DNA of 64,000 bases. Source: Promethearchaeota archaeon (lineage in GTDB: Archaea > Asgardarchaeota > Lokiarchaeia > Sigyniarchaeales > SOKP01). The position numbers and the translations under genes are program-made. Below the pieces are notes generated by a model. The model was not told the origin of the DNA. It searched no databases and was given only the letters and a program-made list of their open reading frames with translations. How positions within the stretch are numbered: position 1 is the first letter of the stretch; each line of letters opens with the position of its first letter. Below are positions 39,267 to 57,775 of this stretch, piece by piece. Location: the NCBI GenBank assembly GCA_016839585.1, contig JAEOTZ010000058.1, positions 96,001 to 160,000 of the forward strand, given 5' to 3'.

Positions 39267-40478
39267 TTAAAAAAAATCAGAAGAAACTGGCGATTGAAGC
39301 CTTATGTTCCGTTGTGAATTATCAGATAGTAGAGAAATTAATGCTGAAATATTTTGCTTAGTCTCATAAACAATTTCTTTTTCTTCTTCTTTTTTCCATC
39401 TGTTAAATCCAGTTAAGTATGGAGCTGTTTCAAATAAACCTTCCATTAGTCCAGAAACCTTAACTGTTACACCCTGAAGATCTTCTTTTGAAATATTCTT
39501 AATTCTTAAGCGATATTTTTCTAGATCAGAATCTATAGAAACAATTTTATAGAATTTTTGAAATTTCGAGGAGATCCCATCAAATATAGATGGAGCTCCA
39601 GTATGTTCTCCAGAAAATAGATCCAAATCTTTTCTACTTTCATCAATAGGTTTTGAGATTATTGTTATGGGTAATTCAAATCTAATTGGTTCCTTGCCAT
39701 ATTCTGGTTTCTTCTTACCTATTATTAAAAGAGACCACTCAGTATAATCTCCGTATTTGAAACCCCAATACTCCTTTTCTGTGGGTTTCCATAAATAGTT
39801 ATGACTTGATTCAGCAATCTCAGGGACTTTTAATAGTAAAAAACCTTTATCAATATTAGAAGTCTTAGAAACCCCAGCAATAGCAGGAGGAAGTTCTTCA
39901 ACCTTCCGGCAATTTTGTCCATATGCTTCACAATAGCAAACCAAATTCGCTTTTTCCAGTAATCGCACTTCAATTTGTTTGAGTTCTTCAGAAGTGAAAC
40001 TTATTTTGATTGTTTCACCGGGTTTAAAAACATCCTTTGTAAGAAGCACATTTAAGCCAGAAATTGAAAATGAGATTGGTTTAGGTGTTTTAGCTTGAAG
40101 ACCTGATTCTTTTGCTTTTATTTCAATATCATGAGTTTTATTAATAACAAAATCATCTTCTGGATTAAGAGGATGTGGTTGTCTTAAAATTAGTTTAATA
40201 ATATAATTTAAATTTCTATTTTTTATACTAGGAACAACATTATTTTTTATCAATAACGACTTGTTTCTTATGTATCTACCTGCTTCAAATTTTCCCTTTG
40301 AAAATATTTCTTCTTTTGAAATATGAAGCTCTTTAGCACAAGGAGGATTAGTAATTAATCTAATACCACTCCATAAAATAGAGGTATCTTCCTCAAAAGT
40401 AAATATGGTCCTAATATTTAATTTATCTCCAATAAATACAGAACCATTATTTAAATCAGTTAACTCTAATTTTACCAA
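39267..40478 (-). CDS. Arrestin-fold protein with extra C-terminal Ig-like domain
   Basis: Two beta-sandwich patterns (FEAGRY...VPS...NYIIKLILRQP; VFKPGETIKI...LKVP...FELPITI). Confidence 0.6.
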   Translation of the reverse strand: MVKLELTDLNNGSVFIGDKLNIRTIFTFEEDTSILWSGIRLITNPPCAKELHISKEEIFSKGKFEAGRYIRNKSLLIKNNVVPSIKNRNLNYIIKLILRQPHPLNPEDDFVINKTHDIEIKAKESGLQAKTPKPISFSISGLNVLLTKDVFKPGETIKISFTSEELKQIEVRLLEKANLVCYCEAYGQNCRKVEELPPAIAGVSKTSNIDKGFLLLKVPEIAESSHNYLWKPTEKEYWGFKYGDYTEWSLLIIGKKKPEYGKEPIRFELPITIISKPIDESRKDLDLFSGEHTGAPSIFDGISSKFQKFYKIVSIDSDLEKYRLRIKNISKEDLQGVTVKVSGLMEGLFETAPYLTGFNRWKKEEEKEIVYETKQNISALISLLSDNSQRNIRLQSPVSSDFF

Positions 40479-40725
40479 GTCTAGATTAATTTAATGAAGT
40501 GTTTTATATTAATTTTATAAAAGGATGAGATTTTATTAAAAACTTATTATTAGTTGTTAAGATTTAAAGATTTCGTAAATATTTTTCATAAATATTTCGT
40601 AAATATTTTTTATTGTTCATTTTTTATAAAATTAGTTTACTCATTTTCACGAAAAAGATAATAAGTAAATATTATAAGTTAGTTTTTATAATTACAATTA
40701 ATAAGAGTTTAAAAATGGTAGAACA

Positions 40726-41448
40726 ATGAAGGAAAGTATGGATAGTCAAATAAAAGCTATTCTCTTTGATTTAGATGGCACTTTACTTGAGGTTAATTTA
40801 GATTTGTTTATATCCCACTATTTAAAGTTATTGGCTCAAAGTGTAGCTCATATTATCTCGCCTAAAAAGTTTATTGCCAAAATTCAAAAAGCCTCTAAAG
40901 CTGTCGAAGAAAATGATGGTCTTAAAACTAATATAGAAATTTATATTGATGCTTTTTTTCCATTAGAAGGTCATTCTCATGAGGAAATTGAACCATTTTT
41001 CGAAAAATTCTATGAAAAAGGTTTTTCTAATTTACGTCAATATACACGTAGGAAACCAGAAGCTAGGAAAGTCATTCAAACTGCTTTTAATAAGGGATAC
41101 GATGTAGTAATTGCTACTACTCCCTTACTTCCTTTAACGGCTATTGAACAAAGATTGGAATGGGCTGGAGTGCCAGCAGAAGATTTTCCTTATCGGTTAA
41201 TAACTACAATTGAAAACAGTAGAGCCACTAAATCGCTAACAAATCTGCATTACTATGAGAAGATTCTAAAAACCATTGGATATCCTGCTGAATCATGTTT
41301 GATGGTGGGTGATGAGGATAAGGATCTGATTGCTGGACAATTAGGAATGCAAACTTTTCTTATTCTTAATTCTAACAAAGAATCAAATCAAAATAAGATG
41401 GAGCCTACATATAAGGGGGAATTAATAGATTTGTTAGATTTGCTATAA
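40726..41448 (+). CDS. HAD-superfamily hydrolase
   Basis: FDLDGTL, ATT, MVGDEDKD. Confidence 0.9.
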   Translation: MKESMDSQIKAILFDLDGTLLEVNLDLFISHYLKLLAQSVAHIISPKKFIAKIQKASKAVEENDGLKTNIEIYIDAFFPLEGHSHEEIEPFFEKFYEKGFSNLRQYTRRKPEARKVIQTAFNKGYDVVIATTPLLPLTAIEQRLEWAGVPAEDFPYRLITTIENSRATKSLTNLHYYEKILKTIGYPAESCLMVGDEDKDLIAGQLGMQTFLILNSNKESNQNKMEPTYKGELIDLLDLL

Positions 41449-41450
41449 AA

Positions 41451-41615
41451 TTAATCTTTCCATGTATATTCAAGTTTACTCATATTATAAATCTGGGAAG
41501 GATCTTCCATTAATATTTTAGCTAAACACTTAGCACAATAATAAGATTCTTTTCTCCTGTCTTTAAAAAAACACATAAATAACCTTTGGTTTTGCAAACA
41601 ACCTTCGCACCTCAT
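41451..41615 (-). CDS. 54-aa CxxC...CxxC zinc-finger miniprotein (not in ORF track)
   Basis: MRCEGCLQNQRLFMCFFKDRRKESYYCAKCLAKILMEDPSQIYNMSKLEYTWKD*; GTGAG upstream; fills the gap between the HAD gene and tag. Confidence 0.7.
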   Translation of the reverse strand: MRCEGCLQNQRLFMCFFKDRRKESYYCAKCLAKILMEDPSQIYNMSKLEYTWKD

Positions 41616-41705
41616 TTTTCTATCTCACTAAAAATTATTACTAAAGAAATGAAAAATATTATTATTAAATTAAAAATAATTTTTCCTTCTATATCTTTTT
41701 CTGAA

Positions 41706-42344
41706 TCAATCTTTCGATTTAACCACCATTTTATTTATCTCATTATATCTAAAACAATCAACTACATGGTCGTTAACGATCCCAACTGCCTCCATAAAGC
41801 TATATATTATCGTAGGACCAACAAATTTAAAACCTCGTTTTTTTAAATCTTTACTCATGAGCTCAGATTGTTCAGTTTTCGAGGGCAGTTCTGATAACTC
41901 CTTGAATTTATTTATTATTGGTTTGTGATTAACAAATTTCCAAATATACTTATCAAATGATCCAAATTCCTTTTGCACTTCCAGAAACGCCCTAGCATTT
42001 GCTATTACAGCATTTACTTTTAATCGGTTTCTTATAATACCTTCATTATTCATTAGTTCTTCGATTTTCTGATTATTATATTGCGTAATTTTCTTTGCAT
42101 CAAAATTATCAAATGCTTTTCTGAAGTTCTCTCTTTTCTGTAAAATGGTGCTCCAACTTAATCCTGCTTGAGCTCCTTCTAATATTAAAAATTCAAAAAG
42201 AAGTCGATCATTATGAATAGGAGTTCCCCATTCAGTATCATGATATTTCTTCATAGCGGCACTATTAGCCCATCTACATCTAAATCTATCCACCATTGTA
42301 TTCATATTCTGTTCGTATAACATATATTTTTTATTATTCAACAA
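41706..42344 (-). CDS. tag: DNA-3-methyladenine glycosylase I (true start likely a downstream ATG)
   Basis: RCRWA, YHDTEWG, LEGAQAGLSW, IIRNRLK, GFKFVGPT, NDH...C. Confidence 0.95.
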   Translation of the reverse strand: MLNNKKYMLYEQNMNTMVDRFRCRWANSAAMKKYHDTEWGTPIHNDRLLFEFLILEGAQAGLSWSTILQKRENFRKAFDNFDAKKITQYNNQKIEELMNNEGIIRNRLKVNAVIANARAFLEVQKEFGSFDKYIWKFVNHKPIINKFKELSELPSKTEQSELMSKDLKKRGFKFVGPTIIYSFMEAVGIVNDHVVDCFRYNEINKMVVKSKD

Positions 42345-42429
42345 AAAAAAATTGGACTACAATTTTTATTAATTATAGAAAATATTGCTTTAATTAATAA
42401 TATAAAAAATTAATAAAAGGTGTGAACTT

Positions 42430-42891
42430 TTGACTAAAATTTGGATTGTTTATAATACTAAACATGGAAATTGTGGTAAATGGTGCGAAGAAGTAGAAAC
42501 AAAACTGCAAGAAAAATATGAGGTAAAAATAAATAGTGTAAAAGAGATTACTCCTAACGACGTAGCAAATGATCCACCTGATATGCTAATTGTTGGTGCT
42601 CGTATCGTAGTAGGAAGCCCTGATAAAAAGATTAAAGGTTTTGTAAAAAAACTTGGTGGACTTCTGAAGGAACCAATCCCAAAAGCAGCGATTCTTTATA
42701 CACATGGCTCTCCCTGGAATGAAACGTTCAATAAAATGGAAGCAATCTTAAAAGAAAACAATGTTGTAGATGATATTCTTCCAGAGATATTAGAAATAAA
42801 GATGGAAGGAATAAAGGGACCTGCTGAACCAGATCAAGATTATAAGGTAAGTAAATTTATCGATAATGTTTCTTACTTTGTTGAAAGGTAA
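42430..42891 (+). CDS. Flavodoxin-like protein
   Basis: IVYNTKHGNC FMN-loop-like motif, flavodoxin fold pattern. Confidence 0.7.
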   Translation: MTKIWIVYNTKHGNCGKWCEEVETKLQEKYEVKINSVKEITPNDVANDPPDMLIVGARIVVGSPDKKIKGFVKKLGGLLKEPIPKAAILYTHGSPWNETFNKMEAILKENNVVDDILPEILEIKMEGIKGPAEPDQDYKVSKFIDNVSYFVER

Positions 42892-42954
42892 ATAAATGTT
42901 GATTAAATACCTTGAAAATAAAGAAATATAAAAAATAGAATTAAATTTTTTTAT

Positions 42955-43863
42955 TTATTCTGTATGAGCTGAAATAATTAAATCAGCAAAAAGCTTCATA
43001 TCGTTTAATAATGTATTCAATTTATCTTGTGAATCTCTATCAAGTTCCTTACTTTTCATAACAAGCACAGAAATTATATACTTGAAAATATGTAGTTCAA
43101 CTTCCTTTCCATCCTCATTTCTACCATTAAAATCTGCAGAATCTGACATAAAAATATTTTCTCGAACTGCATTACAAGCATTAATGAAATCTCTTAAATC
43201 ACCTCGTAATGTTAATCCACTACTCACTCCTTGAACATTATGAACTATAACATTTCCTGAAATATCTGCAATTATAACTTTAGCTTTAATTTCGTCAAGT
43301 TGGGTTTCTGCTTTTTCTACATGAGACTTCAAATCAGCATAAGATGAGAGTAAAATGTCCCTAAATACCTTCGCTAATTCATCTTGTAAATATATACTTG
43401 TTAATTTATAGTCAAACTCATAATCTTTGAAAAGATCTAAAAACATATCTTTCGCTTTTTTAACATTCGTGTCAAGGAGCTCCTTCTGAAAATCTTGTGT
43501 ATCATATTTGTGAAGAAAGAGAAAAATTGTTGGTTTTTCATTACTTTTTCGATAAATATCTAATAATCCTATGAAATATTCCTTTGCTTGCTCAAAACTA
43601 TTAGGATCATGTAAATCTACGATAGGAATAAGAATATCTGTGCCTCGAAAAATTTCAGGTTTTTCCATGTATTCTTTTCGATATTGTTCTTGACCTCCAA
43701 AATCAAAAATGCCAACTTGTAAACCTAAGAACGGATGGCGTCTTGTTTCATATAATATAGTCGGAGACAGACCTTTTGTTTCTTCTGCGCTCTTTTCTGC
43801 AAATGCCACAGAATATAGGCTCGTTTTCCCACTCCCAGATAAACCGACTAATGAAATTTTCAA
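42955..43863 (-). CDS. Rag/Gtr1-like GTPase with C-terminal roadblock-like domain
   Basis: GLSGSGKTS, LSPT, FDFGGQE, FLHKYD (HKxD G4 typical of Rag), TSI; C-terminal VIIADISGNVI. Confidence 0.82.
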   Translation of the reverse strand: MKISLVGLSGSGKTSLYSVAFAEKSAEETKGLSPTILYETRRHPFLGLQVGIFDFGGQEQYRKEYMEKPEIFRGTDILIPIVDLHDPNSFEQAKEYFIGLLDIYRKSNEKPTIFLFLHKYDTQDFQKELLDTNVKKAKDMFLDLFKDYEFDYKLTSIYLQDELAKVFRDILLSSYADLKSHVEKAETQLDEIKAKVIIADISGNVIVHNVQGVSSGLTLRGDLRDFINACNAVRENIFMSDSADFNGRNEDGKEVELHIFKYIISVLVMKSKELDRDSQDKLNTLLNDMKLFADLIISAHTE

Positions 43864-43957
43864 CTTGGTTCAACCTTTTTTATTGTTTCTTTCTTTATTA
43901 ATAAATTTTATAATTTTTTATTTCATTTAACTTTTTTAAAAAAAATTGCATTTTTTT

Positions 43958-45445
43958 TTATTCCTTTGGTGTTATTTTAAGAGTTCTGTAAAAAATTTTT
44001 CCAAAGGCTTCTGTTGATGCCTCAACCAAAATATTTGCATTAATAGGTTCACCTTCTTCTACTTCTAAAGGATAACCTATATCGACAGTTTCATATGGAA
44101 ACATTTCCTTAATAGTAGTGATCCATGGTCTTTTTTCAAATACCTCTTCTACGGTTACAATTCTGATTTTCATGTTTTCTAATACAAACCCGATTGTGTT
44201 TGTTAGTGAGATATTCAATATTTTTTCTTCTTCATTTAAAATTTTTGAAACACTTAAGAATTTCCTTGGACCAAGAGGCTTAGCAACAGCAGGTTTTTCC
44301 TCCTCAGGACCCGTTCGAATCTTAGGTTCTTCTTTTTGTTCAGTATCTTTCACAATGAAGACCTTCCTTTTTTGTATAGTGTATTGAGAAACTTTTTTAA
44401 GTTTAGCTAAGAATAATACTGAGTTTAAATTAATAGTATCAAAGGGTTCTATTTTAAGGTAACCCTTCTCAGCAGCGTCTTGAATAATTTCAGTACCAAT
44501 CCCTGTTCTAGCAAATACTGTATTTTTATTTGGACCACTTCCGACTGATCCTACAGAAATATCAGCATTCTCAGCAGTTAAATCAGTACAAAAATTGCAA
44601 CTGGATGATTTAAACTTGTCTAATTCTTTAATTGTGTATGACTTAATTGGTTCTCCGTCTGCTTCATAATAAACATGAAATTTTCCCTTATTTATATTCA
44701 TTTTTTGTACTTTTTCTAAGGCAATTCCATCTTTCTCAAAATAAGGATATAGAGCTTCTGGAGCAAAGGAATCCATACAAAATAATCCAATCGTTAATAT
44801 ATGCGCCCGCATAAAGTATTTAAGCATTCCTGATGGAGAAATCATCATTTTGTTAACAGCATCGATATTACAAGGAGTACCAACAAAAGCAATAGATCTA
44901 TAATCTGCTCTTATAGCATCCATCAGAGCTTCAACAGTGTGAGAATGACTATAAATAGAACCCGATGCTTTTATTGCATCATCCTTGTTTGTAATAATTT
45001 GAGCAACTGGGTGCCATGGATTATTCTCATCTTTCATTGTGACAACAGCGGCATCAATCAAATGTTCATCAAAAAGATAACAAAGAAGCGAAGTGACAGT
45101 TCCTCCATCCTGTCCTCCAATTACCTCGGGAATATTTGTATTTGCCACATAGCCTGTCTTGAAATCTCCCATTAACTGAATGGGATCTGTGATGGTTCTA
45201 GGACATTGGTTATAACATATCCCACAACCTGTGCATTTTCCTATTAGTTTTGGCTGTGCTGCTAGATGATCCCATTCTAGAACAGGGCAAACAGCTGCAC
45301 AAGTGCCACATTCAGTGCAGATACCCGTTCTAATTATCTCGCGCGTGAGCATTCCAAAGCTATCCTTTTTTCCTTCTAATTTCTTTTGAATATAATCGAA
45401 GGAATAATCGTATTTGGATTTATCTTCTATTTTTTCTTTACTCAT
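43958..45445 (-). CDS. FrhB/FdhB-family F420-binding subunit with N-terminal ferredoxin and extra C-terminal domain
   Basis: CTECGTCAAVCP, QDGGTVT, VGTPC, IGLFCM, CNFCTD...DISVGSVG. Confidence 0.9.
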   Translation of the reverse strand: MSKEKIEDKSKYDYSFDYIQKKLEGKKDSFGMLTREIIRTGICTECGTCAAVCPVLEWDHLAAQPKLIGKCTGCGICYNQCPRTITDPIQLMGDFKTGYVANTNIPEVIGGQDGGTVTSLLCYLFDEHLIDAAVVTMKDENNPWHPVAQIITNKDDAIKASGSIYSHSHTVEALMDAIRADYRSIAFVGTPCNIDAVNKMMISPSGMLKYFMRAHILTIGLFCMDSFAPEALYPYFEKDGIALEKVQKMNINKGKFHVYYEADGEPIKSYTIKELDKFKSSSCNFCTDLTAENADISVGSVGSGPNKNTVFARTGIGTEIIQDAAEKGYLKIEPFDTINLNSVLFLAKLKKVSQYTIQKRKVFIVKDTEQKEEPKIRTGPEEEKPAVAKPLGPRKFLSVSKILNEEEKILNISLTNTIGFVLENMKIRIVTVEEVFEKRPWITTIKEMFPYETVDIGYPLEVEEGEPINANILVEASTEAFGKIFYRTLKITPKE

Positions 45446-45624: not shown

Positions 45625-47238
45625 TTATGATGAATTTTCTAATTCTTGGCTTTCTTCAAGTTTTTCTTCAATTTTTTTGATTGCATTTGAGGCATGAATT
45701 CTCACTATCCTATGAAAATCATTCACTCGTTTTAATAATGCACTTAACGCAGGTTCCTCACCAAAAGTTTCTAAAAATTTTATCAAACTCAATTTGACTT
45801 TAAAATTTTCATCTTCTTTATTTTTTAAATATTCTGTTAATATCGCAATATCTTTATTAAGCAATCTATTTAATTTATTGTTATCATCTTTCACTTTATA
45901 CCAATTTTTTTGAAAAATATGATAAATTGCGTCAGTAGCAACCTTCTTAATTAACCAATATGCATCAATATCATCTAATATTTCTATAAGATGTTCCAAT
46001 GGTTCAATACTTCCGATTTTTCCGAGAGCGATAATAGTATTTTTCTTAACATCAAGATTTCTTATCTTTAATAAATTAATCAAAGGTGTAACAAATTCAG
46101 CTTTCCCAATTTCTCCTAAAATAATTGGTATATTTTCCTTAATTGCTATATTATCAGAGTTTAAATGTGAATACAAATAATCATAAGATGCCTTGCTATT
46201 GCTTATATAGATTTTTTTAATGGCTTCTATAATAAACCATTTTAGATCTAAATCGGTATATTCAAAACTAATATCCTCGATGTTTAATATATCCAAAAGC
46301 TCTGGAACAGCGGCTATATTCCCGATTTCCCCTAATGCTACGATTGATGCTATAGTTACTTCACTATAGATATCATCCAAATTTGATGTCAGAAAATCTA
46401 CAGCTTCATTTAATTTCAACTTCCCAGATAAAAATATCGCATTTTTTTTAACAATAAAATCATCAATTAATAGTAATTTGATTAAATCATTGTTTACCTC
46501 GTTTCCTAAGATTTTAAAAATTGTAATAACGCACTCCATTAATTCTGAGTCTTCTTGATTTAAAATCAGGGTAACAATATCTAATATTAATGCTTTATTT
46601 TGGATTAATTCATCCACAATTTCAGGATATTTTGCTTTCAAATAGCTTAAATCTTTAAAAGATACATTAATGCTTGATAAATCATGTCCAATTAGCTTTA
46701 AAATCTCAATTTTATGTTCTTCTGAATACTTCTTTTTTCTTAAAGATGTTACTAGCCGATTTATTAACAGTTCTGGAGTAAGACTTAATAGTTCATCTTT
46801 TACAAATTGTTTAATAGAAGTATATCTACTATCTAACTCATTAATGAATAGTTGAATTTCAGGTTCTTCAAATTTGATTCTTTTAATAGCTTTTAGGACC
46901 GATAATTTAACATTATAATCCACAGGGTCTTGTTCTAATACCCACATTAATGGTTTCAAGCCTTTTTCATAATTAATTTTACCTATAGCTTTTGCTGCTT
47001 CACGTTTAATTTCAACCCCTTCTTCAGTAATTAAAAGGTTTTCGAAGATATCGAAACATGCTTTTTTCAATGATGTTGATTCCATGCAAATTAATCCTAA
47101 GTATTTAATTGCTTCTTGTCTTATATTATCGCTCTTATTTGATTCGATAATTTCTGACAGCAAGTTTTTAGTATTGTCTAATCCAAATTCTTCACGTTTC
47201 TTATATATTTCCAGAGGTTGAATATTGAGTTTTGACAT
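45625..47238 (-). CDS. HEAT/PBS-lyase repeat protein
   Basis: Repeated ALGEIG/ALGKIG/AIGKI units. Confidence 0.85.
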   Translation of the reverse strand: MSKLNIQPLEIYKKREEFGLDNTKNLLSEIIESNKSDNIRQEAIKYLGLICMESTSLKKACFDIFENLLITEEGVEIKREAAKAIGKINYEKGLKPLMWVLEQDPVDYNVKLSVLKAIKRIKFEEPEIQLFINELDSRYTSIKQFVKDELLSLTPELLINRLVTSLRKKKYSEEHKIEILKLIGHDLSSINVSFKDLSYLKAKYPEIVDELIQNKALILDIVTLILNQEDSELMECVITIFKILGNEVNNDLIKLLLIDDFIVKKNAIFLSGKLKLNEAVDFLTSNLDDIYSEVTIASIVALGEIGNIAAVPELLDILNIEDISFEYTDLDLKWFIIEAIKKIYISNSKASYDYLYSHLNSDNIAIKENIPIILGEIGKAEFVTPLINLLKIRNLDVKKNTIIALGKIGSIEPLEHLIEILDDIDAYWLIKKVATDAIYHIFQKNWYKVKDDNNKLNRLLNKDIAILTEYLKNKEDENFKVKLSLIKFLETFGEEPALSALLKRVNDFHRIVRIHASNAIKKIEEKLEESQELENSS

Positions 47239-55102: not shown

Positions 55103-55155
55103 TTTAAAAAATTTATAAAAAAGTTATAAAAAATTATTATAAAATTGAAGGAAAT

Positions 55156-56661
55156 ATGGTTCAAATAATAAATAGTAAATTGTTCGAAAAAATCTCTCCT
55201 AATGATTTGATCGAAGCTACATATAAAGCTTCAGGAAATTTCCAAGTAAGAGCATTTTTTGAAGCTAAAGATGAAATCTTAAAAACAGGCAAATATACAG
55301 AAGAAGAATTCTATGAAATCTTAGATGGAATGGTTGATGCAGAAACTGAACGATACTTAATTTTAAATAAAGTAAAGGGAAAGAAACCTCTTTTTTTAGA
55401 AGAAATTGCTGAAATAATCAAAGAATTTCCTCCTGAAAATGTAATAAGAGATATCATTTACTTAAAGGAACAAGGATATATTGAGGAACATATTGAGATT
55501 AAAACTAAAACTGTTATAAAAAAAATTAAGGGAGAAGAAAAGGAAGTTGAAGAAAAAGAATATTTTTATAGATATCAAGTAAAGGAGCTTCCAGATAATT
55601 TTATTGAACATTATTTTGAACCAATTTCTATTGTATATGATGCTGGTGTATGTTGTCAATGTGGATGGTGTGCTTCTATTTGTCCTGTCAATGCAATTGC
55701 AGTCACTGCAGACACTCTTGAGATAGATGATGAGGTTTGTATGAAGTGTGGATTATGTTATTCTGTTTGTCCTCGTTCCTTTTCAATTGAACAAGCTTTA
55801 TTGAGTATGAAAAAAATTGATAAATCTCTTCAATTTTCTGAAAAGATTAACGGATATCTTAATACATATTCAGCCACAACAACTAAAGATAAGATTAAAA
55901 AAGTACGCCAAGATGGAGGAATAGTAACCTCCTTACTTGAGTATTTATTAAAGAATAAATTAGTTGATGCTATTGTAGCAGTGCAACATTCAAAAGATTT
56001 CTGGAAACCAGAACCTGTTATTGTAGATAATTTAAACGATTTGTATAAAACGGGTGGAACTAAATATGCAAATGCATCGACTTTAGCTATTATAGGTCAA
56101 ACAAAAAATTATAAGAATATAGCTGTTGTTGGAACACCATGTATGATTAATGCAATTGAAAAAAGTAATTTATTTCCAACTAGAGTACCTTTTTTCAACA
56201 ACATTAAATATAAAATTGGGCTTTTTTGCATGGAATCTTTTCCTTATGAAGGTGTGCTTAAACTAATCAAAGAGCAATTTGATAAAGATTTTACGAAAGT
56301 AACAAAGATGGATATAAGCGGTGGAAAATTTATCATTTATTTGGATTCAGGGGAGGATTTAAGAGTCCCCCTTAATAATGTTAAATCCTATGCTCGAGCC
56401 AATTGTCATTATTGTGAAGATTTAACTTCTGATTATGCAGACATTTCTGTAGGCTCAATAGGCTCTCAAGCAGGTTGGTCTTCCGTTATCACTCGTTCAA
56501 AGAAAGGTGAAGAAATTTTCCAAGGAGCTGTTGAAGTAGGTTTAATTGAGTTTCAGAATCTAAAAGATGTTAAACCAGGACTAGGTCTTTTAGAAAGAAT
56601 TGCTGATACTAAAAGAAAAAATTGTAAACCAATTGAATTAATTAAAAATCAAAAAACTTAA
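55156..56661 (+). CDS. FrhB/FdhB-family F420-binding subunit with N-terminal helical/winged-helix extension and 2x[4Fe-4S] domain
   Basis: CCQCGWCASICP, CMKCGLCYSVCP, QDGGIVT, GGTKY, VGTPC, IGLFCM, CHYCED. Confidence 0.9.
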   Translation: MVQIINSKLFEKISPNDLIEATYKASGNFQVRAFFEAKDEILKTGKYTEEEFYEILDGMVDAETERYLILNKVKGKKPLFLEEIAEIIKEFPPENVIRDIIYLKEQGYIEEHIEIKTKTVIKKIKGEEKEVEEKEYFYRYQVKELPDNFIEHYFEPISIVYDAGVCCQCGWCASICPVNAIAVTADTLEIDDEVCMKCGLCYSVCPRSFSIEQALLSMKKIDKSLQFSEKINGYLNTYSATTTKDKIKKVRQDGGIVTSLLEYLLKNKLVDAIVAVQHSKDFWKPEPVIVDNLNDLYKTGGTKYANASTLAIIGQTKNYKNIAVVGTPCMINAIEKSNLFPTRVPFFNNIKYKIGLFCMESFPYEGVLKLIKEQFDKDFTKVTKMDISGGKFIIYLDSGEDLRVPLNNVKSYARANCHYCEDLTSDYADISVGSIGSQAGWSSVITRSKKGEEIFQGAVEVGLIEFQNLKDVKPGLGLLERIADTKRKNCKPIELIKNQKT

Positions 56662-56665
56662 TTGA

Positions 56666-57775
56666 ATGATTTTTATGAGTGTAAAAACATTTCAAGATTT
56701 AATAACAGAAGTTCATGAGAGAGGAATATGTCAAGAATGTGGAGGCTGCGTAAGTTTTTGTAGTTCAGCTGAGTATAATGTTATTGGTCTCAAAGATCCA
56801 TATAAACCTCCTGAATATATTAATAAGGAAAAATGTCTTGAATGTGGAATTTGCTATTATATATGTCCTCAGACTCATATTTTGGATAATGAGCTTAATA
56901 AAACGTATAAATTTACTGATTATTCTTCAATGCCAATAGGGTATTATGAAGATATTTACTCTTGTCAAGCTACTGACGCGGACTTTTTGAAATATGGAAC
57001 TGATGGTGGGGTTGTAAACTCTATTATAAATTTTCTAATAGAGAAGAAGTTAATTGATGGTTCTGTAGTTTCCAAAACAGAGGCTCCGTTTTCTAGAGAA
57101 GCTACATTTGCGAATAGTAAAACTGATTTATTAAAAGCTTCTGGAGCTAAATTAGATATTTCAGCTCAATTGGATGAGATCCAAAAGTTTTGCACATATA
57201 CTCATTCGATTCCTAAATTGAATCATTATAAATTCAAAAAATTAGCAGTCGTAGGTACACCTTGTCAGATTTATACAATGAGATGTATGCAAGATTTAGG
57301 GGTAACTCCTTCAGAAAATATTGAAATATGTCTTGGACTCTTCTGTTATGAGAATTTTTTATTTGATATCTCCAAAATTACTAAACTTGAGAAAGATTTC
57401 AATATAAAATTTACAGATATTGAAAAAATCAACATCAAGGAAGATTTAATTTTTAGATTAAAAGGTGATAAGGTAATTCATGTACCTTTTAACCGATTAA
57501 AATATTTTATGCGCCCTGCTTGTAATGCATGTGGTGATTTTACAAATATCTATGCAGATATTTCTTTTGGAGGTCTAGGTTCTCCTGATAAATATACTAC
57601 TGTTATAACTCGAACAAAAAAGGGAAAAAATATCTTTTCCAGAGCATTAGATGCGGGTGTAATTAAAAATTTAGATTTAAATCAGGCAAAAAAGAAAAAA
57701 ATGTTTGATTTAATTAGCCAATATTCTCAATCAAAATTAAAACGTCAAGAAAAATTTATGAATAACCTAAAATAG
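56666..57775 (+). CDS. FrhB/FdhB-family F420-binding subunit
   Basis: CQECGGCVSFC, CLECGICYYICP, TDGGVV, VGTPC, LGLFCY, CNACGD. Confidence 0.9.
   Translation: MIFMSVKTFQDLITEVHERGICQECGGCVSFCSSAEYNVIGLKDPYKPPEYINKEKCLECGICYYICPQTHILDNELNKTYKFTDYSSMPIGYYEDIYSCQATDADFLKYGTDGGVVNSIINFLIEKKLIDGSVVSKTEAPFSREATFANSKTDLLKASGAKLDISAQLDEIQKFCTYTHSIPKLNHYKFKKLAVVGTPCQIYTMRCMQDLGVTPSENIEICLGLFCYENFLFDISKITKLEKDFNIKFTDIEKINIKEDLIFRLKGDKVIHVPFNRLKYFMRPACNACGDFTNIYADISFGGLGSPDKYTTVITRTKKGKNIFSRALDAGVIKNLDLNQAKKKKMFDLISQYSQSKLKRQEKFMNNLK

Follow-up and report, generated by a model that had tools for sequence, protein, structure and literature searches.

The closest described counterparts of the gene cluster analysed here are the eukaryotic Rag/Gtr GTPases, with their metabolite sensors and longin/roadblock regulators (Ragulator/EGO, GATOR1 Nprl2-Nprl3 and FLCN-FNIP), and an Asgard archaeal operon of FLCN-like DENN-longin and roadblock proteins (10.1101/2020.10.19.343400). 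Rag-like GTPases and roadblock/longin proteins have already been described in Asgard archaea, and a structural survey of MK-D1 reported that the GTPase genes, as a rule, do not share operons with those for roadblock, longin or TRAPPC3 proteins, and that regulators are hard to match to them (PMC10933270). Asgard genomes encode Rag-, Rab- and Arf-like GTPases by the dozen, with no assigned partners. Here we describe one specific Rag GTPase that has fixed operon-like neighbours in Lokiarchaeia, Jordarchaeia and Hodarchaeales, three of them marked by a private shared domain. It is encoded in a 64,000-nucleotide stretch of a Promethearchaeota genome (assembly GCA_016839585.1, contig JAEOTZ010000058.1, positions 96,001 to 160,000), which we call the window. 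Beside it lie the genes of an FrhB-type flavo-iron-sulfur oxidoreductase (frhB) and of a putative arrestin-like protein, both of which end in this domain, hereafter the tail. A full-text literature search found no paper on such an FrhB-Rag-arrestin cluster or on the tail domain.

Like the eukaryotic Rag/Gtr proteins, the GTPase belongs to the Gtr1/RagA family, has an HKxD G4 motif and carries a C-terminal extension; it is also encoded together with a putative longin/uDENN-like protein and with proteins of ligand-sensing type (CBS, FrhB). Unlike in the eukaryotic system, each cluster has one Rag gene and no heterodimer pair, and there is no TOR kinase, Ragulator or lysosome. The FrhB, arrestin-like and C25 peptidase partners have no known place in the eukaryotic Rag pathway. 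The resemblance to the FLCN-like operon lies in the conserved clustering of a small GTPase with longin-type candidate regulators, but the GTPase family of that operon is distinct from Rag, and FrhB, the arrestin-like protein and the tail are missing from it (10.1101/2020.10.19.343400).

A first-pass annotation, made from the window sequence, had aligned the C-termini of the FrhB-type and arrestin-like proteins, and both tail strings that it quoted were found where it had placed them. The pairwise match is not significant by itself (BLASTP E 0.14 across 12 residues). When the window genome (3.45 Mb) was searched with either tail, the other tail was not retrieved, whether the query was one sequence or a narrow profile, and the narrow profiles matched only themselves. 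These profiles consisted entirely of Loki relatives, with identity to the query of at least 68% (arrestin tails) or at least 58% (FrhB tails) and an effective number of sequences (Neff) of 1.6-2.2. Compared with each other by hhalign, they gave a probability of 9.8% (P 0.0033), already in the register of the first alignment.

We searched 301 Asgard genomes from 30 families with the FrhB-tail profile. These are samples of metagenome-assembled genomes (MAGs), so that "not found" differs from "absent" throughout. In distant families the profile matched two to three neighbouring genes per genome: the FrhB orthologue, a protein of ~350-370 amino acids (aa) encoded a few kb upstream, which we call the third protein, and, in three genomes, an open reading frame (ORF) of ~380-395 aa just downstream (E 1.5e-6 to 2.1e-5). 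With 31-35% identity to the arrestin-like protein of the window (E 1e-60 to 3e-70), the downstream ORF is its orthologue. With 50 loci retrieved, diverse tail alignments could be built for the FrhB-type (n=33), arrestin-like (n=26) and third (n=27) proteins. On these, hhalign joined the arrestin and FrhB tails with 98.6% probability (E 1.3e-15) over 84 columns, in the same register as before, the arrestin and third-protein tails with 97.5% (E 5.7e-12), and the FrhB and third-protein tails with 99.8% (E 8.6e-28). Reversed profiles, 20 column shuffles and the N and C lobes of the arrestin-like protein, run as controls, gave probabilities of at most 7% and P of at least 0.005. The profile-profile comparison, named beforehand as the test that could overturn the alignment, is thus significant with diverse orthologues, and the alignment is more than chance.

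The same holds across the whole window genome, of which all 8410 six-frame ORFs were searched with hidden Markov models (HMMs) of the tails. The FrhB-tail HMM matched only the FrhB-type protein (7e-33), the third protein (4e-10) and the arrestin-like protein (8e-5); the arrestin-tail HMM matched itself and the FrhB-type protein (0.0016); the third-tail HMM matched both other carriers and one spurious antisense ORF within frhB (E 0.006). A combined tail HMM retrieved exactly three proteins, all encoded inside 33 kb. In other genomes the full arrestin-like profile reached the FrhB tail at 8.4e-11 and the third-protein tail at 1.9e-11, and BLASTP matched the third protein to the FrhB C-terminus in Jordarchaeia down to 1e-27. 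A motif is common to all three tail classes: L-F-E follows strand 3, strand 4 begins with W, and P-x-E lies in the turn between strands 4 and 5. Mean column identity is lower in the tail than in the FrhB core (0.50 vs 0.69). The tails of the arrestin-like, FrhB-type and third proteins are homologous.

AlphaFold2 (AF2) models of the FrhB tail (predicted local distance difference test, pLDDT, 86.7) and the arrestin tail (pLDDT 77.9) each contain seven strands that agree in order and spacing, and strands 2 to 7 of the two models were superposed by the hhalign register. Both are predicted seven-strand immunoglobulin (Ig)-like sandwiches, the fold that the first-pass annotation had proposed. Searches with both models in Foldseek and VIA returned generic Ig-like sandwiches only (transglutaminase C-domains, GH2 Ig domains, FnIII, CARDB, DUF3244); the two lists overlap heavily, and the best VIA Z scores, 9.6 and 10.1, are in a range that the tool rates as common. 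RhoGDI, NPC2, BBSome and TRAPPII structures among these rows were considered as a functional clue and set aside, as they do not rank above unrelated rows, and we draw no functional conclusion from them. When the FrhB-tail model was used for a shape search of the ESM Atlas, its own family was found at a template modelling score (TM) of 0.84, and the best matches other than itself were Promethearchaeota hypothetical proteins of 344-346 aa, which belong to the third family (TM 0.75); generic Ig domains stayed at or below 0.71.

Pfam gave no match on the tails at any cut-off, with CARDB (PF07705) and ASH (PF15780) unmatched even at E <= 1 and GAE_BBS1 sub-threshold in 6/86 tails. Searched against 1.84 billion proteins, the combined tail profile retrieved only 123 cluster representatives: 40 of the third type, 17 of the arrestin type, 7 of the FrhB type, ~43 short and probably truncated ORFs and, at the weak end of the list, ~16 long CARDB/ASH/DUF11 repeat proteins. 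Apart from these repeat proteins, every representative with a recognisable N-terminal part has one of the three carrier architectures, and the tail is exclusive to these.

Several eukaryotic CARDB/ASH/GAE-type domains serve as platforms for protein docking in trafficking complexes that GTPases regulate. The tail resembles Ig-like (E-set) domains of this class (adaptin ear/appendage, BBS1/PTHB1 GAE, TRAPPC ASH) in being a seven-strand sandwich, ~95-100 residues long, in which strand 2 ends with an Asn, partly a structural hallmark of CARDB/ASH-type domains. Outside the three carriers, remote sequence matches of the combined profile were confined to multi-repeat CARDB/ASH/DUF11/HYDIN-type proteins. 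Unlike those domains, the tail is cytoplasmic and C-terminal, occurs in one copy per protein, in three architectures and in a few Asgard lineages, and bears a conserved L-F-E ... W ... P-x-E motif not shared with them. Because the CARDB and ASH Pfam families are unmatched and the only profile matches outside the carriers are weak and to multi-repeat proteins, we file the tail as a new, narrowly distributed family inside the CARDB/ASH-like Ig class and not as a member of CARDB.

The neighbourhood of the Rag gene is conserved. In the window, the Rag gene starts 95 bp downstream of frhB on the same strand, and the tailed frhB gene adjoins a Rag gene in 37/43 loci. In 30 loci it is followed by the Rag gene on the same strand within 108 bp, while in 7, all from Hodarchaeales, the two genes converge within 68 bp. 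The adjacency of frhB and the GTPase gene, on which the first-pass annotation had also staked its proposal, thus holds in Lokiarchaeia, Jordarchaeia and Hodarchaeales. The fullest arrangement is found in Jordarchaeia (families f10 and f21), where CBS, third-protein, Peptidase_C25, tailed frhB, Rag and arrestin-like genes follow one another with short or overlapping boundaries; this string is complete in 10/11 loci, and in the eleventh the CBS-third pair is inverted ~6.6 kb upstream. A class-level relative of Loki (f4) has the order CBS, third, CBS, frhB, Rag, arrestin-like. The frhB, Rag and arrestin-like genes are contiguous in Loki genera g3 and g8, and in both of these, as in Jordarchaeia, the Rag and arrestin-like genes overlap or abut. 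Hodarchaeales have two third-protein paralogues, a CBS gene and a tailed frhB gene facing the Rag gene. The Jordarchaeial type of cluster, with its CBS and C25 genes, looks ancestral.

In the genus of the window and in g4, g5 and g6 the HEAT, frhB and Rag genes come in this order, and the arrestin-like gene follows them at a distance of 1.9-8.5 kb on the same strand. Genes of arrestin-like orthologues (28-75% identity) directly follow the Rag gene in Jordarchaeia and some Loki genera; in the window's own family unrelated genes separate the two. In the window these are genes for an HAD hydrolase (+), a 3-methyladenine DNA glycosylase (-) and a flavodoxin-like protein (+) at 40726-42891, and this looks like a lineage-specific insertion, because the arrestin-like and Rag genes abut in g3, g8 and Jordarchaeia. 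The HEAT-repeat gene had been noted as a neighbour, and it does share the minus strand with the tailed frhB and Rag genes. Its position upstream of frhB is confined to Loki genera g1, g4, g5, g6 and g8; it is missing there in g3, Jordarchaeia and Hodarchaeales, and elsewhere the C25 peptidase gene takes its place; we rejected it as a core component, since outside one Loki family it is not in the cluster. Two of the tail carriers had been recognised correctly, while the third carrier, encoded past the end of the window, and the CBS and C25 genes had been missed (Table 1).

Table 1. Features of the locus; positions are those of the window unless marked as contig positions
Feature	Position	Strand	Details
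FrhB-type flavo-iron-sulfur oxidoreductase gene (frhB)	43958..45445	(-)	495 aa; PF04432, PF04422 and Fer4 Pfam matches
C-terminal Ig-like tail of the FrhB-type protein	43961..44263	(-)	residues ~395-495; AF2 fold, hhalign; unannotated in Pfam
Rag/Gtr1-family GTPase with C-terminal extension	42955..43863	(-)	302 aa; PF04670 82.6 bits
Putative arrestin-like protein, two N-terminal beta-rich lobes and shared tail	39267..40478	(-)	403 aa; single copy
C-terminal Ig-like tail of the arrestin-like protein	39270..39566	(-)	residues ~305-403; AF2 fold, hhalign
HEAT-repeat protein, lineage-specific upstream neighbour of frhB	45625..47238	(-)	PF13646 1.9e-31
Third tail-bearing protein	C47:167404-168453 (contig)	(+)	~349 aa; 7.4 kb past window end, 27 kb from frhB
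Tail-less FrhB paralogues, in tandem	55108-56658 and 56666-57772	(+)	FrhB_FdhB_C at C-terminal end

The three carriers are also inherited together, and their occurrence is limited to the same 7 of the 30 families sampled. In Promethearchaeia (f1) we found the tailed FrhB-type protein in 55/68 genomes, the arrestin-like protein in 56/68 and the third protein in 62/68. All three were found in every genome of Jordarchaeales (f10, 5/5 for each) and Jordarchaeia (f21, 6/6 for each), as well as in the single genomes (1/1) that represent f3, f4 and f20. Hodarchaeales (f24) have the tailed FrhB-type protein in 13/21 and the third protein in 20/21, and the arrestin-like protein in 0/21. A single weak match to the tail profile (E 0.0075) came from f22, and none of the three carriers was found in the other 22 families sampled. 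Among these is the sister family f2, with 0/7 for all three carriers, a closed 4.4-Mb genome included. Within Loki, the third protein was found in 1/4 genomes of genus g2 and the tailed FrhB-type and arrestin-like proteins in 0/4 each. In a tree of all tails the arrestin class (support 0.998) and the third class (0.914) are separate, and the host families are monophyletic within each class, with no sign of recent exchange between tail classes. Because the classes separate and the families are monophyletic within them, the tree places the triplication of the tail before the divergence of the carrier lineages, and the three versions, judged by their sequences, are ancient, vertically inherited paralogues.

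The tailed FrhB-type protein consists of a 2x[4Fe-4S] ferredoxin domain, FrhB_N, FrhB_C (to residue 336), a charged linker of ~55 aa and the tail. It is matched well above cut-off by PF04432 (1.3e-41, 142.4 bits, cut-off 23.3) and PF04422 (1.5e-20, 73.5 bits, cut-off 22), and its Fe-S cysteines (C43/46/49/53, C71/74/77/81 and C192/223/283/286) are invariant, 12/12, in 43/43 orthologues. It is like the F420-reactive modules of the FrhB/FdhB/FpoF type in having FrhB_N and FrhB_C, the four core cysteines and the N-terminal 2x[4Fe-4S] ferredoxin domain, and by this family membership it is assumed to use F420. Unlike those modules, it is not encoded beside hydrogenase, formate dehydrogenase, Fpo or Hdr genes; it bears the charged linker and the Ig-like tail, and its gene is operonic with that of a small GTPase. 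The tail-less paralogues in the window differ from it in this genomic context, theirs being a conventional metabolic setting for FrhB, and, in agreement with the first-pass annotation, both end directly after FrhB_FdhB_C and have no match to the tail HMM.

For the Rag GTPase, the Pfam match exceeds the cut-off of 22 bits for PF04670. G1 (GLSGSGKTS), G3 (DFGGQ) and G4 (HKYD, residues 118-121) can be read in the window protein; G1, G3 and the Rag-type HKxD are kept in 32 orthologues, with H118, K119 and D121 invariant, and a C-terminal region of ~130 aa is conserved. Against the PDB, its profile matched 8yl2, a 342-aa GTP-binding protein, at 2.3e-29, Gtr1/RagA at 2e-21, RagC at 1e-13 and Arf/Arl at 1e-10. 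Only one of the many Rag/Arf-like paralogues in the window genome is inside the cluster. From these conserved residues, both the FrhB-type enzyme and the Rag GTPase look functional.

Genes for arrestin N/C-domain proteins have been reported from some Asgard MAGs (10.1101/2021.02.04.429862). Our label "arrestin-like" refers to sub-threshold evidence only. At E <= 0.01 the protein has no Pfam match. Arrestin_C covers residues 130-300 of the window protein below cut-off (E 0.018) and appears at E <= 1 in 12/18 orthologues, the best at 4.7e-4, all under the 27.7-bit cut-off. The family has no match among PDB sequences, and its ESM Atlas feature neighbours, which we take as a lead only, include arrestin/Vps26 clusters at 0.85-0.87. 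The likeness to the arrestin clan (arrestin, alpha-arrestin, Vps26, Spo0M) lies in ~290 residues that form two beta-rich lobes, with the recurrent sub-threshold Arrestin_C match on the second. The protein differs from that clan in falling below every curated threshold, in four invariant cysteines, in the tail as a third domain and in the fixed association with a Rag gene. The cysteines, C47 (in P-C) and C181, C183 and C190 (C-x-C-x6-C, second lobe), are invariant in 18 orthologues of 27-75% identity, which suggests a Zn or Fe-S site, unusual for an arrestin fold.

The third protein has an N-terminal domain of ~170 residues, a helical middle part and the shared tail. Its N-terminus starts with a strand-hairpin (F-D/H-E-x2-G-H ... 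Y-P) and has a basic K-x-R-A-G loop before a hydrophobic strand. At E <= 1 Pfam matched none of 28 members, and PDB sequences gave no relevant match; all 120 homologues listed are "hypothetical" proteins without a Pfam domain. The ESM Atlas places it at 0.87 to a cluster in which 19% of members carry NPR2 (PF06218). On this lead, which is not a result, the N-terminus may be longin/uDENN-like. The third protein also occurs naturally fused to CBS domains (P0372, 641 aa with four CBS repeats; L036:4983-6335 (-)), and since these fusions match the adjacency of the CBS and third-protein genes they support a functional link between the two. In Hodarchaeales (L022-L028, e.g. L023:11839-14033) two third-protein paralogues stand in tandem, one with the K-x-R-A-G loop and one without, an arrangement that resembles the paired longin subunits of eukaryotic GTPase-activating protein (GAP) complexes. 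Several Hodarchaeal and Jordarchaeal matches to the third protein (e.g. G211:C52:93501-94556, G217:C96:28428-29486, G175:C6:7767-8810) contain one in-frame TAG/TAA, maybe from read-through of the alignment upstream. In the window genome the third-protein gene is preceded by an MFS transporter gene and followed, after 13 nt, by a GNAT acetyltransferase gene (PF00583, 3.7e-8; L056:7404-8943 = G000:C47:167404-168943).

The shared domain, the synteny and the co-occurrence of the carriers lead us to favour a docking or assembly role for the tail. As a module common to the three carriers, it would unite the redox enzyme with the arrestin-like and third proteins around the co-encoded Rag GTPase, through a shared binding partner or through pairing between tails; we put the probability of this at slightly better than even (about 0.55). 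In such an assembly metabolic input (F420/ferredoxin redox state and adenosyl ligands) could come from the CBS protein and from the FrhB unit, whose Fe-S sites are intact; the third protein would be a candidate GTPase regulator, and the arrestin-like protein may serve as output adaptor. A coupling of F420 redox state to GTPase/arrestin signalling, as the first-pass annotation envisaged, is an inference from the genes. A predicted complex of the Rag GTPase with the FrhB tail scored 0.21 against a mark of 0.32; as it was run without controls, we take it as evidence neither way.

Several observations weigh against a docking module. In the family of the window the cluster has loosened, with the arrestin-like gene 1.9-8.5 kb from the GTPase gene and the third-protein gene 27 kb off, so co-transcription of all parts is not required. 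Hodarchaeales keep the tailed FrhB-type protein, the Rag GTPase, the CBS protein and two third-protein paralogues, and the arrestin-like gene was not found in their 21 genomes. That the third protein is longin/uDENN-like is not significantly supported by sequence. Ig-like sandwiches have many roles, and the conserved Asn of strand 2 is no proof of a binding site.

The tail might instead be a domain of general structural or solubility function, spread among neighbouring genes by local recombination early in Asgard history and retained because each host protein needs it to fold or stay stable; it would serve no shared partner, and the cluster would reflect co-regulation only. The three carriers are adjacent in the ancestral-looking arrangement, which favours local duplication of the domain, and the lower conservation of the tail relative to the FrhB core fits such a domain as well. 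But the three versions have long been retained in all carriers, with family-congruent trees, and they are lost or kept together across the 30 families; a surface motif (L-F-E / W / P-x-E) common to the three classes would also be unexpected for independent structural ballast. We consider this alternative unlikely. Somewhat less probable still is a ligand- or membrane-binding sandwich, as in RhoGDI, ML/NPC2 and PDE-delta/UNC119, that would bring the carriers together at a membrane patch or small molecule with no direct contact between them. Foldseek rows for RhoGDI, MD-1/NPC2 and UNC119 were returned for both tail models (E ~1e-3, TM 0.4-0.55), and the lipid anchors that eukaryotic small GTPases carry are missing from the Rag-like GTPases of Asgard archaea (PMC10933270), which would then need another membrane-targeting device; those structure matches are, however, no better than dozens of unrelated Ig-like domains. 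A chance likeness of two unrelated beta-rich, Glu/Lys-rich segments in an AT-rich genome, which the pairwise BLASTP, the narrow-profile hhalign and the failure of single sequences and narrow profiles to match reciprocally would all have allowed, is refuted by the diverse-profile comparison with its clean controls, the exclusive reciprocal HMM matches genome-wide and the third family that bridges the two tails, and the agreeing AF2 topologies also speak against it.

If the tail is a docking module, the cluster could, in a bolder version that we regard as doubtful, be an archaeal Rag-GTPase sensor of metabolic state that prefigures the eukaryotic Rag/GATOR/FLCN logic. The third protein would then be a longin-type GAP or guanine nucleotide exchange factor (GEF) with the K-x-R-A-G loop as arginine finger, and its Hodarchaeal pairing with a loop-less paralogue would correspond to Nprl2-Nprl3 or FLCN-FNIP. 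FrhB and CBS would signal the status of F420/ferredoxin redox and of adenosyl nucleotides, the arrestin-like protein would act as effector adaptor, and the tail would be the common plug to one scaffold.

The cluster offers a small, concrete and experimentally tractable candidate complex that includes an unexpected metabolic enzyme, and the possible link from redox or energy state to a eukaryote-like GTPase and arrestin-fold proteins is directly testable. The new Ig-like family also aids the annotation of several hundred "hypothetical" Asgard proteins. Hodarchaeales are the lineage inferred to be closest to eukaryotes, and the presence of the cluster there adds evolutionary interest.

Further genes accompany the cluster in Jordarchaeia. 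The Peptidase_C25 encoded between the third protein and frhB (L014:8138-10750 (-), L007:7819-9861 (-)) is of the gingipain/clostripain type and looks cytoplasmic, and its longer version in f10 also has DUF4350 / IFT52-GIFT-like and SoxY-like segments. A second FrhB paralogue, with an N-terminal winged helix (HTH_20/MarR-like), is encoded on the strand opposite to the cluster (L014:2975-4411 (+), L009:3454-4872 (+), L017:787-2235 (+)) and is possibly a redox-responsive transcription factor. Its gene adjoins the arrestin-like gene in Jordarchaeales (f10) and lies beyond V4R genes in some f21 loci. In f21 the arrestin-like gene is followed by three to four tandem V4R paralogues of ~425 aa (L007:3-3671 (-), L019:236-5532 (-), L020:2301-7605 (-)), members of the superfamily that includes TRAPPC3/Bet3.

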